A stretch of 64,000 bases of DNA from Escherichia coli (GTDB taxonomy: Bacteria; Pseudomonadota; Gammaproteobacteria; Enterobacterales; Enterobacteriaceae), in the NCBI RefSeq assembly GCF_003334765.1, contig NZ_QOWT01000006.1; one strand, given 5' to 3'. Positions 30,770-37,838 of this stretch are shown piece after piece. Position 1 is the first letter of the stretch. Each line of letters begins with the position of its first letter. A program made the translations under genes and the position numbers. The notes below the pieces were generated by a model that was not told where the DNA came from, searched no databases, and saw only the letters and a program-made list of their open reading frames with translations.

Positions 30770-32425
30770 TTAACTCATCACGCGGTCGTCAACATACTGA
30801 CGTTTATCCGGCGCTGGCGGGAAATACTGATACAGCCATGTTTCACTGATAGCGTCCCCCTGACAACGTAGATACATCCGCATATCGACCGGATCAGTGG
30901 AGTCCGAAGTCGGATACCAGTCAAACTGAATACGATAACCATCGATGGGTTCAATATAGAGAATTTCGATTTGCTTCGCTTCCCCACTGGAAAGCGTAAT
31001 CACCGGCTCAATGCCTTTTGGCGCGGCAGCTTTCAGATCACCACCAACGAAATCGACGGCAAAACGACGCGCCCATTTTTCGGGATAGTGTTCACCTGGC
31101 GCCCAACCTTCCGAGAAACCGCCCATGCCGGTACGCGTCGCCATAACGCGCGCTAATGGGCAATGAACAGGCGGTTGCGCACTCCAGTACAGACGATACT
31201 GGAATGCAAACTCATCACCTGCTTTTACAGCTTTTTCTGGCTGCCAGAAGCAGACAATGTTATCCAGCGTTTCGCCCGTTGTTGGGATTTCCATCAGGCC
31301 GATGGTGCCCTTACCCCACTTGTTACGCGGTTCCACCCACAGACTTGGGCGTTTGTTATACCAGCCCATAATGTCCTGATAATGGGAGAAGTCACGATCC
31401 AGTTGCAATAAACCAAACCCTTTCGGGTTGTTGTCGGTGTAAGCATTGAACTGCAATTTTTGCGGATTATTCAGCGGACGGCAAATCCACTCGCCGTTGC
31501 CCCGCCACATGGACAGACGATCAGAGTCATGAATTTGCGGATGAATTGTATCGCACATCCGACGTTCATTAGTACCGCAGCTGAACATACTGGTCATCGG
31601 CGCAATGCCCAGCTGTTTAATGTCTTTGCGCGCATACAGGTGATTTTCCACATCCATAATCACCTGACTTTTCTCACAATGGATAGTGAACTTATAGGCA
31701 CCAGTAATGCTGGCGCTATCGAGCAACGCATAAACGGTAAAGGTAGTTGCCCCCGGTTTTACCGTATCAAACCAGAAGGCGGTAAAGTCGGGGAACTCTT
31801 CTTTACTGTCGGTGTAAGTGTCGATCGCCAGGCCGCGGGCCGACAAACCGTATTGATATGTATCATCAACGGCGCGGAAATAACTCGCGCCGAGAAATGA
31901 TACTACATCACGGCGCGCCAGTTCGGGGGCTTTAAACACGCGAAAACCGGCAAAGCCGAGATCGCTTTGCCCTTCTAATTGTTTTGTATCAACACCTGCA
32001 TCGTTGTATTTGAACAACTCCGGGCGAAAGTGAATTTCACGCGCCAGATGTGTTGCTGGATCTACAGAAAACATACGAACGCGGCGACGGAATCCCATTC
32101 CCATATGGAAGAACTGAGCGTCCAGTTGACGGTTCTCAACGTTATGCCAGAGCGATTTTTCGGCGTCGTATTGAATACTGTTATAAGCCTGCGGCGTCAT
32201 TGTCGCCAGCGTGTCAGGTAACGGACGAGGCGCACCACGCCACGCTGTTTGCGCTAAGTCGTGCGCCATTGACTGTAGAATGGAGAAGTCAAAACGCTGG
32301 GTTTGCCCGTCGGCAATATCAGAATCTGCCGCGAATGCCGCCTGAGAAAAAAGAGAAGCAATGCCGCTGGTACCGCACACGGCGGCCATAGCCATTGAAC
32401 CTTTAATAAATCGTCTACGATCCAT
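30770..32425 (-). CDS. opgD: periplasmic osmoregulated glucan biosynthesis protein D (Tat-exported)
   Basis: 551-aa ORF with a twin-arginine signal ([18 protein letters not shown]...AFA). Confidence 0.9.
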
Positions 32426-32649
32426 ACCTGAAAGTGAGTCCTTCTGGTGTTGTGAATGGTCCCGCGCTGGTCGTTTTCAGCGGCAAGAAAGTGCTTATTT
32501 ATGACCGCTCACTCTAGACAATATTTATTAATAATCCAATTGTTGAACTGAGAGAATATGCATAAATCGGCATTTTTTTTATGTCGATGGGATGAGCCTG
32601 ATTCGTTTGTAAAATCAGGCAAATTTTTGCAAAGGCGGATGGTCAGATT

Positions 32650-33993
32650 TTAAAGCAAACCACAGCGACGTTTACTGCGTTCTTCCGCTTCCTGGTAAAG
32701 CTGGAACTCATCCAAAACCGGACAACCCAACGCCTGCTCAAATGCTTCGCGACTGGCATTACCGTGACTGCGTGTCTGCGTTTCATTACCCAGATTTGAC
32801 TGGAAGATCCCCGCCGCGCTAACGGGCAAGAAATCTTCATAGGTGATGGGTTGCGCCACTACCCAACCACGTTCAATTAAGGGCTGTGGATCGTCTCCAG
32901 GATGAATCGCCTGACGATGCGCCTCACCCGAAGGCGTCAGACGGTACCGGAACCATGCCAACCCTTGCTGACGCATTAAAAACTCACTGTCAGGAAAAGT
33001 GCGGAAGGTTTCCTGTAAATGCATTTGGTGAGTGAGATTATCCTGCCCGGTTCCAGCGTTACGCAGAAGATCATCATACAGTTGTCGCCCTTTCGGCGTT
33101 AATGCCACGCCACGCTGCTCAATTTCACCAAAGCGCGCGGTATGCGTGCCCTGTTTCTGCCCCGCAAACAACACCGTCTCTTCCAGTGCTTTAAAGCTGG
33201 TCTGGCGTAGTAAAATCGGTACCTCGCGGCGCGGCGGCCCCTCGATGAGAATTTTGGGTTCAATTCCGCATTCAGGCATCATCGACTGCACCCGGTCAAT
33301 ATCCAGCGTACGTGGCGTCAGGTGGTTGATATGGCATCCAGGAAAACAGACCACATCAGCAATCAACCGATGTTCGTTGTGCAATGCGCGATAGGTTTCT
33401 TCATCTACCGTTGCTGACTGGTGCCAGCGAAACGTTTCCAGGGCTTCCTGCACAAACTCCTGTGCCTGTGTTTCGTTAAAACCGCCCTGCTGCTCATATT
33501 CCTCTAACAGTTGTCGACAACGTGGGGTGAAGATATCGCGCTGACGCAGAATCTCCGCCGCTTTCTGGCGCAAAATTTCGTTCTCGATAAGCTCAAGGCG
33601 GAGTAAGGAGGTAAAAACGCGGAAGGGATTACGCGCCAGAGAAGCATCATCAATGGGCCGAAATGCTGTCGAATGTACCGGCACCCCTGCCTGCGAGAGA
33701 TCGTAATAGCTCACCGGGTACATCCCCATAATGGCAAACATCCGCCGAAGAGTAGCAAGCTCTTGTGCAGTCCCAACGCGAATCGCCCCATGACGTTCAA
33801 CATTCAGTCGCGCCAGCTCGTCTGCATTTACCATTTTTTCGTGCAGTTGAGGATTGTTTTCCAGCACAGCCAGATTCACATCAGCTACCAGTTCCAGCAG
33901 CGTGCCATATTGCGGAACTTCTTGCTGGTACATGGCTGACATTGCCTGCGAAAACTGTTCCCGAATCTCATCCGCCGTGATGCTGTTCGCCAT
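32650..33993 (-). CDS. ydcJ: DUF1338-family metalloenzyme-like protein (putative 2-oxoadipate dioxygenase/decarboxylase family)
   Basis: 447-aa ORF; the family assignment is from recollection of YdcJ as a DUF1338 member, not from a motif I can verify here. Confidence 0.75.
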   Translation of the reverse strand: MANSITADEIREQFSQAMSAMYQQEVPQYGTLLELVADVNLAVLENNPQLHEKMVNADELARLNVERHGAIRVGTAQELATLRRMFAIMGMYPVSYYDLSQAGVPVHSTAFRPIDDASLARNPFRVFTSLLRLELIENEILRQKAAEILRQRDIFTPRCRQLLEEYEQQGGFNETQAQEFVQEALETFRWHQSATVDEETYRALHNEHRLIADVVCFPGCHINHLTPRTLDIDRVQSMMPECGIEPKILIEGPPRREVPILLRQTSFKALEETVLFAGQKQGTHTARFGEIEQRGVALTPKGRQLYDDLLRNAGTGQDNLTHQMHLQETFRTFPDSEFLMRQQGLAWFRYRLTPSGEAHRQAIHPGDDPQPLIERGWVVAQPITYEDFLPVSAAGIFQSNLGNETQTRSHGNASREAFEQALGCPVLDEFQLYQEAEERSKRRCGLL

Positions 33994-34209
33994 AGTGTCT
34001 GCCTCCAGTGGTCAGTAATCTGGAGTGTAGGTAACCGCATTCACTCTTGCGGGAAGAATTTACAAACTGTGATCTCGCCGCGAAAACATCAATATTATCC
34101 ATTTTGCTGTAACATAATTGCTTTAATTGTTAATAATATTTTGCAATCAAGTTATCATAATCAAACAACTTCACTTGTCAGCGACACCGCTTCGTTTTTA
34201 ACATCGCTT

Positions 34210-35133
34210 ATGGAAAAAAATAGTCTGTTTAGTCAGCGCATCCGTTTGCGCCACCTTCATACATTCGTAGCTGTCGCACAACAAGGAACTTTGGGGCGCG
34301 CGGCTGAAACCCTTAATTTGAGTCAACCTGCGCTCTCTAAGACATTGAATGAACTGGAGCAGCTGACTGGCGCTCGCTTGTTTGAGCGTGGTCGTCAGGG
34401 GGCGCAACTTACCTTACCCGGCGAACAATTTTTAACGCATGCAGTCAGAGTTCTTGACGCCATCAACACTGCCGGACGGTCGCTTCATCGTAAAGAAGGT
34501 CTTAATAATGATGTCGTCAGGGTTGGTGCACTACCTACTGCGGCACTGGGGATATTACCTTCGGTTATAGGTCAGTTTCATCAGCAACAAAAAGAGACGA
34601 CCTTGCAAGTTGCGACAATGAGTAACCCTATGATTCTGGCGGGTTTAAAAACCGGGGAAATCGATATCGGCATTGGTCGGATGTCAGATCCTGAACTGAT
34701 GACCGGGCTTAATTACGAACTGCTGTTTCTTGAATCGTTGAAGCTGGTTGTCCGCCCTAATCACCCGCTACTTCAGGAGAACGTAACGCTAAGCCGGGTG
34801 CTGGAATGGCCGGTCGTTGTATCACCAGAAGGCACTGCGCCACGCCAGCATTCAGATGCATTAGTGCAGAGCCAGGGCTGTAAAATTCCTTCGGGTTGTA
34901 TCGAAACGCTGTCTGCTTCGCTATCTCGTCAACTTACGGTTGAATACGATTACGTGTGGTTTGTCCCTTCTGGCGCTGTAAAAGACGACCTGCGTCATGC
35001 CACGCTGGTGGCCCTGCCTGTTCCGGGACATGGTGCAGGCGAACCGATTGGAATACTGACCCGCGTAGATGCGACGTTCTCTTCTGGTTGCCAGTTGATG
35101 ATTAACGCTATTCGAAAATCAATGCCGTTCTGA
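34210..35133 (+). CDS. ydcI: LysR-family transcriptional regulator
   Basis: 307 codons from the internal ATG at 34210 (MEKNSLFSQRIRLRHLHTFVAVAQQGTLGRAAETLNLSQPALSKTL...); classic LysR HTH. Confidence 0.8.
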   Translation: MEKNSLFSQRIRLRHLHTFVAVAQQGTLGRAAETLNLSQPALSKTLNELEQLTGARLFERGRQGAQLTLPGEQFLTHAVRVLDAINTAGRSLHRKEGLNNDVVRVGALPTAALGILPSVIGQFHQQQKETTLQVATMSNPMILAGLKTGEIDIGIGRMSDPELMTGLNYELLFLESLKLVVRPNHPLLQENVTLSRVLEWPVVVSPEGTAPRQHSDALVQSQGCKIPSGCIETLSASLSRQLTVEYDYVWFVPSGAVKDDLRHATLVALPVPGHGAGEPIGILTRVDATFSSGCQLMINAIRKSMPF

Positions 35134-36877: not shown

Positions 36878-37099
36878 TGACCAAAAACCTCTTTGCGTCA
36901 CATTTTTACAACAATTATTGCATAGAAAATTAATGCTATTGGAATGAAGAGAGTAACGAATGGCTAAACTGGCTAACCCGAATGACGAAAAATTCTGGAA
37001 AACAGCACGCAATTTCGTGAAGTGATTATTTTCGTCCCTAAGGAAACCTCATAGGATGCCTGCGGGTGCCTGAGACTTTCTGTTTTCAGGCTAACCGGG

Positions 37100-37151
37100 A
37101 ATCAGAAAGACGAAGGCCCCGACCGATATTTCTATCAACCGAGGCCAACGA

Positions 37152-37170
<19 letters not shown>
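37100..37170 (-). ncRNA. sokB: expected position of the Sok-type antisense RNA of the hokB locus (approximate)
   Basis: Inferred from hok/sok family architecture (antisense RNA overlapping the mok translation start). No promoter or terminator could be resolved confidently, so the coordinates are approximate. Confidence 0.25.
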
Positions 37171-37359
<189 letters not shown>

Positions 37360-37774: not shown

Positions 37775-37838
37775 CTTCCGATGTAGACCCGTATTCTTCG
37801 CCTGTACCACGGGTCGGTTTTAGTACAGGCGTTTTCTT
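37775..37838 (+). ncRNA. rydC: RydC-like Hfq-dependent small RNA (about 64 nt)
   Basis: TATAAT -10 at 37764-37769, then cuuccgauguagacccguauucuucgccuguaccacgggucgguuuuaguacaggcguuuucuu with a 9-bp terminator stem (cgcctgtac / gtacaggcg) and U-tract. Lies in the ydcA-cybB intergenic region, where I recall RydC mapping in K-12. Confidence 0.65.

Follow-up and report, generated by a model that had tools for sequence, protein, structure and literature searches.

ydcJ of Escherichia coli is the already known hydroxyglutarate synthase gene hglS

Described relatives and the ydcJ gene

The best characterised relative of YdcJ is HglS of P. putida (PP_5260; structures 6W1G and 6W1H), for which Fe(II) and O2 dependence, a 1:1 O2 stoichiometry and 18O2 labelling have been described. 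Its product is D-2-hydroxyglutarate, and among seven 2-oxo acids tried, 2-oxoadipate alone was accepted. In P. putida, hglS is found close to genes of D-lysine catabolism; lysine and 2-aminoadipate induce it, and growth on lysine requires it. The plant DUF1338 enzymes, rice FLO7 and Arabidopsis AT1G07040, share the fold, the HHE triad, the arginine and the reaction, and their role in plant lysine catabolism has been demonstrated. They are about 15% identical to HglS, are targeted to organelles, and do not have the Val/Ser loop contacts. YdcJ of Shigella flexneri (SF1787) was deposited by a structural-genomics effort as PDB 2RJB, an 'uncharacterized protein' without substrate or biochemistry.

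We examined ydcJ within a stretch of 64,000 nucleotides of E. coli DNA (the window). ORF calling bore out the 447-aa frame that an earlier note had placed at 32650..33993, here on the minus strand (Table 1). A GGAGG Shine-Dalgarno sequence is located 9 nt upstream of the ATG, and the GC content of the gene is 52.7%, without compositional anomaly. The locus was found in 5418 of 5426 complete E. coli genomes (99.9%) at an identity of at least 95%, and the RefSeq name for the product is hglS (WP_000013789.1).

Table 1. Features of the ydcJ locus, in window coordinates
Feature	Position	Strand	Basis or remark
ydcJ / hglS CDS, 447 aa	32650..33993	minus	ATG-to-stop ORF; product 2-oxoadipate dioxygenase/decarboxylase (hydroxyglutarate synthase)
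His68 codon, first metal ligand (HglS His70)	33790..33792	minus	alignment to 6W1G, ligand list in PMC7286885, codon check
Arg72 codon (HglS Arg74), salt-bridges distal carboxylate of 2-oxoadipate	33778..33780	minus	alignment to 6W1G, PMC7286885, codon check
His224 codon, second metal ligand (HglS His226)	33322..33324	minus	alignment to 6W1G, PMC7286885, codon check
Glu290 codon, third metal ligand (HglS Glu294)	33124..33126	minus	alignment to 6W1G, PMC7286885, codon check
Val391-Ser392 codons, mobile substrate-binding loop (HglS Val402/Ser403)	32818..32823	minus	alignment to 6W1G, PMC7286885, codon check
opgD	30770..32425	minus	ORF and RefSeq annotation; 3' of ydcJ on the same strand, 224-bp spacer
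ydcI, LysR-type regulator, 307 aa	34210..35133	plus	ORF; divergent from ydcJ
ydcJ-ydcI divergent control region, 216 bp	33994..34209		consensus scan; predicted promoters of both genes
Predicted ydcJ promoter, CTGACA-16-TATGAT	34181..34154	minus	consensus scan
Predicted ydcI promoter, TTAATA-17-TATCAT	34130..34158	plus	consensus scan
GATCACA, candidate regulator or promoter element	34068..34074	minus	invariant in 14 enteric ydcI-hglS spacers; about 75 nt 5' of the hglS start codon

Family, active site and reaction of YdcJ

To place the protein, we compared it with family profiles and solved structures. Residues 14-400 of YdcJ aligned with positions 1-386 of the 386-position Pfam model PF07063 (E 1.6e-161), a full-length match to the family once called DUF1338 and at present named "HGLS". 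The earlier note had named this family, and had rightly described its characterised members as 2-oxoadipate dioxygenase/decarboxylases that depend on Fe(II). Against the NCBIfam HglS equivalog NF049974.1, YdcJ scored 743.4 bits and passed the cutoff of 550. The score against the mycobacterial model NF050083 was 383 bits, below the cutoff of 600, as expected since that model covers a different clade. Residues 5-445 matched P. putida HglS (6W1G/6W1H) with an E value of 1.2e-157 and an identity of 57-59%. The Shigella protein in 2RJB shares 446 of the 447 residues of YdcJ, S193L being the sole change, so that this deposit is effectively an experimental structure of E. coli YdcJ. It superposes on HglS with an rmsd of 1.3 A over 408 residues and has the same VOC fold (PMC7286885 and its supplement). 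By near-identity to the solved 2RJB, the fold of YdcJ is assigned as a VOC-type, partly closed beta-barrel.

All of the residues that define P. putida HglS are retained in YdcJ, namely the metal triad, the specificity arginine and the substrate loop. The histidines at positions 68 and 224 were both invariant in an alignment of 36 sequences (A1). Sequence diversity for the residue counts came from a search for representatives at 50% identity. Among the resulting 77 full-length sequences (76 representatives and YdcJ), arginine was found at position 72 in 73 and glutamate at position 290 in 74. The loop motif PVSAAGIFQSNLG is the same in YdcJ and HglS. When HglS ORFs from named genomes were inspected, the equivalent of Arg72 was present in 64 of 64, as was the HRHEVS signature. 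Both the DUF1338 domain and the metal ligands are present in YdcJ, and its placement in the family therefore stands.

The reaction of the E. coli protein has been determined directly. Thompson et al. 2020 showed by LC-MS, in triplicate, that purified YdcJ converts 2-oxoadipate to 2-hydroxyglutarate (PMC7286885, Supplementary Fig. 5a), and the same paper words the result as YdcJ having 'identical activity to HglS'. In its text we found, for YdcJ itself, neither a panel of substrates nor kinetics, and nothing on metal dependence or the chirality of the product. The earlier note had described YdcJ as an enzyme with no assigned substrate; this is contradicted by the published assay on 2-oxoadipate, by the equivalog cutoff and by the RefSeq name hglS. 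We conclude that ydcJ is the already known hglS and does not encode an orphan enzyme.

A second claim of that note was that the substrate of YdcJ is probably some other 2-oxo acid, a proposal that arises from the lack in E. coli of the 2-aminoadipate branch of lysine catabolism. The 2-oxoadipate activity in vitro would then be a side reaction. The premise was fair: PMC7286885 also states that no pathway leading to 2-oxoadipate has been described for E. coli, and according to its discussion the described lysine degradation in this organism runs via cadaverine, glutarate and L-2-hydroxyglutarate. The proposal gains something from the fact that 2-oxoadipate alone is reported as assayed for YdcJ, and from the enteric carboxylesterase gene 43 bp downstream and the pcaHG and pcaK-like neighbours described below, which hint at other chemistry. 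However, Arg72 and the PVSAAGIFQSNLG loop are the same as in HglS, with its single accepted substrate among seven. Gln or Met takes the place of this arginine in plant paralogs that are believed to act on other substrates, whereas YdcJ keeps Arg, and YdcJ scores above the curated HglS equivalog cutoff. Set against the reported activity on 2-oxoadipate and the conserved specificity arginine and substrate loop, a different true substrate seems to us highly unlikely.

In our judgement YdcJ is very probably the E. coli ortholog of HglS, a VOC-fold non-haem Fe(II)/O2 enzyme, with a salvage physiology that we infer for YdcJ together with YdiJ. The catalytic mechanism has been established for P. putida HglS, and that of YdcJ would be the same, judging from the identity of 57-59% and the shared active-site residues. 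Iron would be held by H68, H224 and E290, with 2-oxoadipate bound through its 1-carboxylate and 2-keto oxygens and its distal carboxylate held by R72 and the V391/S392 loop. Reaction with O2 would lead to oxidative decarboxylation and intramolecular hydroxylation, yielding CO2 and D-2-hydroxyglutarate. YdiJ, the D-2-hydroxyglutarate dehydrogenase of E. coli (PMC9504171), may then oxidise this product to 2-oxoglutarate. YdcJ and YdiJ would in this way form a short salvage route from 2-oxoadipate, or from transaminated 2-aminoadipate, to the TCA cycle. The route would become active as cells enter stationary phase, and would not belong to a complete lysine pathway. Searches of newer literature on the physiology of HglS/YdcJ returned none, and no ydcJ mutant phenotype was found in the literature that mentions the gene.

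Transcription and the control region

The flanking genes are as the earlier note had described them, with ydcI divergent across a 216-bp spacer and opgD downstream, according to both the ORFs and RefSeq. The promoters predicted for ydcJ and ydcI overlap in their -10 hexamers (Table 1), and the ydcJ transcript is predicted to begin near 34147. Shimada et al. 2014 list the same two promoters, along with an RpoD-holoenzyme SELEX peak and an H-NS mark (PMC3946193). Phylogenetic footprinting revealed a block of the spacer, 34128..34157, that is conserved over 14 enteric genera.

The description of ydcJ as monocistronic is plausible. Shimada et al. 2014 (PMC3946193) enter it as a unit of one gene and give it a separate promoter candidate, but no canonical intrinsic terminator lies past the stop codon; the single match downstream of ydcJ is weak and overlaps that codon. 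A 9-bp hairpin at 32596..32620 was rejected as evidence of an intrinsic terminator: on the ydcJ strand it lacks a U-tract, and the folding of the region was no better than that of shuffles (z -1.2). ydcJ is probably transcribed by itself, with its promoter inside the ydcI-ydcJ spacer.

The spacer also contains a hairpin that overlaps the Shine-Dalgarno sequence (CTCCAG-N11-CTGGAG, 34003..34025). It seemed conserved, and the variant in Siccibacter was fully compensatory. The comparison gave no support for a selected structure, however: across 29 sequences 71.6% of cells were paired, compared with 67% in shuffles, and the observed covariation score was reached by 175 of 500 shuffles.

During the transition of O157:H7 to stationary phase, ydcJ was up 3.6-fold and ydcI 3.4-fold, in a cluster with astCADBE (PMC2241611). 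YdcI may control ydcJ. The YdcI ChIP-exo targets named in the main text of Gao et al. 2018 are nhaA, dtpA, lldP, gltP and gltA, and do not include ydcJ. The family closest to YdcI is PcaQ, the regulator of the pca operon. YdcI scored 287 bits against its model TIGR02424, a little short of the cutoff of 303.8 and about twice the 136 bits of the next-best family. A literature search for a link between YdcI and PcaQ found none.

Gene neighbourhood and proposed role

We then considered the neighbours of hglS in other genomes. The statistics cover 64 of 80 hglS loci, as ORF calling missed hglS in the other 16. Of the 28 related loci from Enterobacterales with a called hglS ORF, 25 have a divergent ydcI ortholog no more than 3 kb from hglS; outside Enterobacterales, the hglS loci are without a YdcI ortholog. 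The usual enteric layout is YdcI< HglS> carboxylesterase> LysR2< aminotransferase> binding protein> OpgD>, with the carboxylesterase 43 bp 3' of hglS in many enterics. In Escherichia, Citrobacter, Superficieibacter and Pseudescherichia the layout is reduced to YdcI< HglS> OpgD>, and E. coli is without the aminotransferase and binding-protein genes that many other enterics have alongside hglS; the aminotransferase gene is found near hglS in Enterobacter, Cedecea and Pantoea. Linkage of hglS with other genes of the D-lysine/2-aminoadipate pathway (amaD-dpkA-amaA-amaB-aminotransferase-hglS-ydiJ) was absent from the window and from the E. coli RefSeq locus, where the neighbours are ydcI, opgD, trg, rimL and ydcK. 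Among non-enterics, hglS has a YdiJ-type gene as its immediate neighbour in 7 genomes and a gene for an AmaA-type pipecolate oxidase close by in 11 loci. The metagenome contigs of the representatives, mostly 2-6 kb, gave little context, and P0121 alone was informative. In this positional ortholog from another enteric lineage, the Arg and the Glu have been replaced, as R72H and E290K, and the substrate loop has been lost.

The fuller gene layout of other enterics, compared with that of Escherichia, would fit an Escherichia ydcJ that is the remnant of a larger enterobacterial cluster and has no current physiological role. The residue losses in P0121 and the lack of a ydcJ phenotype in the literature point the same way. 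We give this reading very little credence. The locus is present in nearly every complete E. coli genome (5418/5426), the catalytic residues are kept across 64 named genomes, the protein is active in vitro, and its transcript is induced at stationary phase. Taken together, these observations argue for purifying selection and not for decay.

The genes found next to ydcI suggest still another context. In 4 enteric genomes ydcI is separated from hglS by pcaH-pcaG, and in 4 Erwiniaceae by the gene of a PcaK-like transporter. The enteric genomes with pcaHG or a pcaK-like gene next to ydcI number 8, and E. coli is not one of them. With PcaQ as the best family of YdcI (287 bits against 136 for the next), YdcJ might belong to a protocatechuate module under a PcaQ-like YdcI, its substrate being a 2-oxoadipate-like ring-cleavage intermediate and not derived from lysine. 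Such an aromatic role is extremely improbable. The PcaHG (3,4-cleavage) pathway passes through 3-oxoadipate, not 2-oxoadipate. Moreover, hglS outside Enterobacterales is tied to ydiJ-like and amaA-like genes without a YdcI ortholog, and no pca genes are present at the E. coli ydcJ locus.

For the YdcJ-YdiJ salvage route, a more specific form can be put forward as speculation, although we hold it to be rather unlikely in full. YdcJ would then have no part in a lysine pathway of E. coli, and the two enzymes would salvage or repair stray 2-oxoadipate in stationary phase, turning it into 2-oxoglutarate in two steps. This 2-oxoadipate could stem from oxidised lysine residues, by way of 2-aminoadipate and its transamination, or be picked up as such from gut or plant surroundings. 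The pca genes beside the PcaQ-like YdcI would have been lost in Escherichia, and the regulator, left an orphan, rewired to this route.

As a discovery, the result on ydcJ carries little weight: what is known of its family, structure, residues and reaction in vitro appeared in print in 2019-2020 and has already entered Pfam, NCBIfam, UniProt and the RefSeq names. Its value is corrective, in that ydcJ should not be passed on as the gene of a substrate-less enzyme. The product of a core E. coli gene makes 2-hydroxyglutarate, presumably the D form, from 2-oxoadipate, which E. coli is not known to make. With the origin of this metabolite identified, either a gap in the metabolic map of E. coli would be closed or a second lysine or aminoadipate route would come to light. 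Starting points are the reduced Escherichia locus, the aminotransferase and Lys/Arg/Orn-type binding protein of other enterics, and the PcaQ-like YdcI.

Among the known systems, hydroxymandelate synthase and 4-hydroxyphenylpyruvate dioxygenase are two-substrate alpha-ketoacid-dependent oxygenases of the VOC superfamily. They resemble HglS in that their own 2-oxo acid is decarboxylated and hydroxylated, with the same metal-site geometry (PMC7286885). Unlike YdcJ, they act on aromatic substrates and belong to a different family, and neither was matched in the YdcJ sequence search. The E. coli gene differs from P. putida hglS in its neighbours, ydcI and opgD, and in being without a known upstream pathway, inducer or phenotype. 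The proteins, in contrast, are alike in the full-length domain, the His/His/Glu triad, the Arg and the Val-Ser loop, and the reaction reported in vitro for both is the conversion of 2-oxoadipate to 2-hydroxyglutarate.

Family placement, active site and substrate of YdcJ

An earlier note had placed the ydcJ product in the DUF1338 family, and a profile search bore this out. YdcJ aligns to PF07063 from the first to the last model position (1-386 of 386; E = 1.6e-161), and the family, once DUF1338, now bears the Pfam name 'HGLS, 2-oxoadipate dioxygenase/decarboxylase'. The NCBIfam equivalog NF049974 'HglS' scored 743.4 bits, against a curated cutoff of 550. Among known structures, the structural-genomics entry 2RJB (Shigella flexneri YdcJ) differs from YdcJ at one residue, S193L, and the Pseudomonas putida hydroxyglutarate synthase HglS (6W1G/6W1H) matched YdcJ residues 5-445 (E = 1.2e-157). 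Superposition of 2RJB and HglS gave an rmsd of 1.3 A over 408 residues (PMC7286885 supplement).

The active site of HglS has been described in detail (PMC7286885). [quoted passage not shown] HMMER aligned these positions with YdcJ H68, H224 and E290 for the ligands, R72 for the arginine, and V391/S392 for the loop, whose motif PVSAAGIFQSNLG is the same in both proteins. The metal ligands, the loss of which was to have spoken against the assignment, are thus all retained. When YdcJ was aligned with 76 full-length representatives of 50%-identity clusters, these positions were His in 76/77, Arg in 73/77, His in 75/77, Glu in 74/77, and Ser in 70/77 sequences. The full H-R-H-E-V-S signature was present in all 64 HglS ORFs from named genomes (58-96% identity).

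The substrate is also known. Purified E. coli YdcJ, assayed in triplicate according to the supplement, turns 2-oxoadipate into 2-hydroxyglutarate (PMC7286885), in contradiction to the claim that it has no assigned substrate. The further proposal of a probable action on a different 2-oxo acid conflicts with the biochemical data in print and with the conservation of the specificity residues; HglS was inactive on all of six other 2-oxo acids. Most RefSeq genomes sampled carry the name 'hglS: 2-oxoadipate dioxygenase/decarboxylase HglS', and older annotations read 'ydcJ: VOC family protein'. Since 5418 of the 5426 complete E. coli genomes contain the locus (at least 95% identity), ydcJ is a core gene. 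It is a real gene, rightly classified, already known and annotated. Five of the 5423 matching places of the region 32400..34250 lie on records labelled plasmid. The match in strain WEM25 (H1) is split in two and accompanied by an additional 'family protein' annotation, suggesting that hglS is locally duplicated or disrupted there.

Transcription unit and possible control by YdcI

The ORF and its neighbours were confirmed as first described, with ydcI divergent and opgD on the same strand. The start codon of ydcJ is preceded at 9 nt by the ribosome-binding site GGAGG, and the gene has 52.7% GC with no compositional break.

Features of the ydcJ region and RNAs elsewhere in the window
Feature	Coordinates	Strand	Remark
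opgD	30770..32425	minus	downstream of ydcJ; 224-bp spacer
hglS-opgD spacer	32426..32649		
9-bp hairpin GCCTGATT.../...AATCAGGC	32596..32620		~30 nt past ydcJ stop codon
ydcJ/hglS	32650..33993	minus	ATG start, 447 codons
inverted repeat CTCCAG-N11-CTGGAG	34003..34025		ydcJ 5' leader; 3' arm includes Shine-Dalgarno
GATCACA	34068..34074		~75 nt 5' of hglS ATG
conserved spacer block	34128..34157		over predicted -10/-35 elements
ydcI	34210..35133	plus	LysR-type; upstream of ydcJ; 216-bp spacer
sok antitoxin RNA (hokB/sokB locus)	37064..37215		110 bits; downstream of trg
sRNA RydC	37775..37838		92.5 bits; downstream of trg

That ydcJ is monocistronic, as had been claimed, is plausible because it has a predicted promoter of its own, a 224-bp gap before opgD, and a single-gene listing in Shimada et al. 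2014 (PMC3946193). This falls short of proof. A single hairpin lies past the stop codon, and it is not a canonical terminator for ydcJ: the ydcJ strand lacks a U-tract there, and shuffled sequences fold as well as this region does. The T-run that follows it is on the plus strand only, where no gene ends. The inverted repeat in the 5' leader is conserved in sequence and fully compensatory in Siccibacter; covariation among 29 sequences did not exceed that in shuffled controls, and it was not retained as a selected hairpin. Both RNAs downstream of trg scored above the Rfam gathering score.

In 25 of the 28 related Enterobacterales loci with an hglS ORF called, hglS has a divergent YdcI ortholog (65-97% identical) no more than 3 kb away. 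None was found at the hglS loci of Halomonadaceae, Rhizobiales, Xanthomonadales, or Pseudomonas in our locus survey. Several features are compatible with control of ydcJ by YdcI. The predicted promoters of ydcJ (CTGACA-16-TATGAT) and ydcI (TTAATA-17-TATCAT) overlap at their -10 hexamers, and the same pair is on record for a SELEX site of RpoD holoenzyme that also bears an H-NS mark (PMC3946193). Phylogenetic footprinting in 14 enteric genera showed that the spacer between ydcI and hglS contains the conserved block over the predicted promoter elements and the invariant GATCACA.

Other evidence counts against such control. Among NCBIfam families, YdcI is closest by a wide margin to PcaQ, the activator of the pca operon (TIGR02424; 287 bits, cutoff 303.8), with 136 bits for the next-best family. 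Kluyvera, Cedecea, Pseudocitrobacter, and strain RIT691 have pcaHG, the genes for protocatechuate 3,4-dioxygenase (TIGR02423, 265 bits), in the interval from ydcI to hglS, and Pantoea, Mixta, and Erwinia have a PcaK-like transporter gene (NF053517, 468 bits) there (loci L015, L018, L029, L030, L035-L037, and L040 together). The transporter gene of Erwinia mallotivora (L040) had no detectable YdcI ortholog next to it. The ChIP-exo targets of YdcI named in the main text of the published study are nhaA, dtpA, lldP, gltP, and gltA (PMC6237786). Adjacency of ydcI therefore does not establish regulation of ydcJ, and YdcI may be an orphaned PcaQ-like regulator remaining after pca gene loss. Our literature search found no published connection between YdcI and PcaQ.

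hglS loci in other taxa

Gene context among 80 hglS loci from named genomes supports the canonical HglS role. In 7 non-enteric loci the immediate neighbour of hglS is a YdiJ-type gene (NF049975, 1046 bits), and in 11 loci a gene for an L-pipecolate oxidase of the AmaA type (NF050086, 450 bits) is close by. The commonest order in Enterobacterales is YdcI< HglS> carboxylesterase> LysR2< aminotransferase> binding protein> OpgD>, in which LysR2 is GcvA-like, the aminotransferase YbdL-like (PRK12414, 753 bits), and the periplasmic binding protein ArgT-like, of the Lys/Arg/Orn type. The carboxylesterase gene (Pfam COesterase) starts about 43 bp past hglS in 18 genomes. Escherichia, Citrobacter, Superficieibacter, and Pseudescherichia have the reduced order YdcI< HglS> OpgD>; for E. 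coli, the hglS-opgD spacer was set against the enteric loci L014, L021, L031, and L033-L036. The aminotransferase and binding protein would fit an amino-acid-derived substrate, for example 2-aminoadipate converted to 2-oxoadipate, a link that is speculative, since both genes come with a regulator of their own and are missing from this locus in E. coli.

P0121, the top-scoring hit among the 50%-identity cluster representatives (58% identical to YdcJ by BLASTP), is a positional ydcJ ortholog on enterobacterial metagenome contigs (L003 8001-9335; also L004 and L005), where a carboxylesterase gene follows it. It carries R72H at the specificity arginine, E290K at the glutamate ligand, and a replaced substrate loop. 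Judged from these changes, P0121 is likely a degenerate, inactive HglS or a repurposed (neofunctionalised) one.

Proposed physiological role and reaction mechanism

As the earlier note rightly held, E. coli has no described 2-aminoadipate/2-oxoadipate branch (also PMC7286885), and our literature search found no later paper resolving its 2-oxoadipate physiology. The downstream enzyme is present, as the YdiJ protein of E. coli has been identified as D-2-hydroxyglutarate dehydrogenase (PMC9504171). YdcJ and YdiJ in turn would salvage 2-oxoadipate as 2-oxoglutarate by a short route, which is our best inference for the role of ydcJ. On transition of O157:H7 to stationary phase, ydcJ rose 3.6-fold and ydcI 3.4-fold, and both share an expression cluster with astCADBE (PMC2241611). 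This induction fits a scavenging or catabolic role. In an ASKA-library screen, ydcJ overexpression gave a glycogen-excess phenotype (PMC2853380). A bacterial ydcJ acquired by horizontal transfer is present in psyllid genomes, and its expression is raised in the bacteriomes of Diaphorina citri; it was named only 'VOC family protein', apparently with no connection made to HglS activity (PMC10558732, PMC10087415). The locus is still of value for two questions: where 2-oxoadipate comes from in E. coli physiology, and whether YdcI regulates ydcJ.

For YdcJ itself, the net conversion of 2-oxoadipate has been demonstrated, and for HglS, Fe(II) dependence and a 1:1 stoichiometry of O2 to substrate (PMC7286885). 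HglS incorporates two 18O atoms from O2 and yields D-2-hydroxyglutarate. In HglS, 2-oxoadipate chelates Fe(II) with its carboxylate and keto oxygens, and O2 takes the remaining coordination site. Oxidative decarboxylation then gives an Fe(IV)-oxo species that hydroxylates the new C2, with D-2-hydroxyglutarate and CO2 as the end products; YdcJ would follow the same course. Hydroxymandelate synthase carries out chemistry analogous to that of HglS (PMC7286885).
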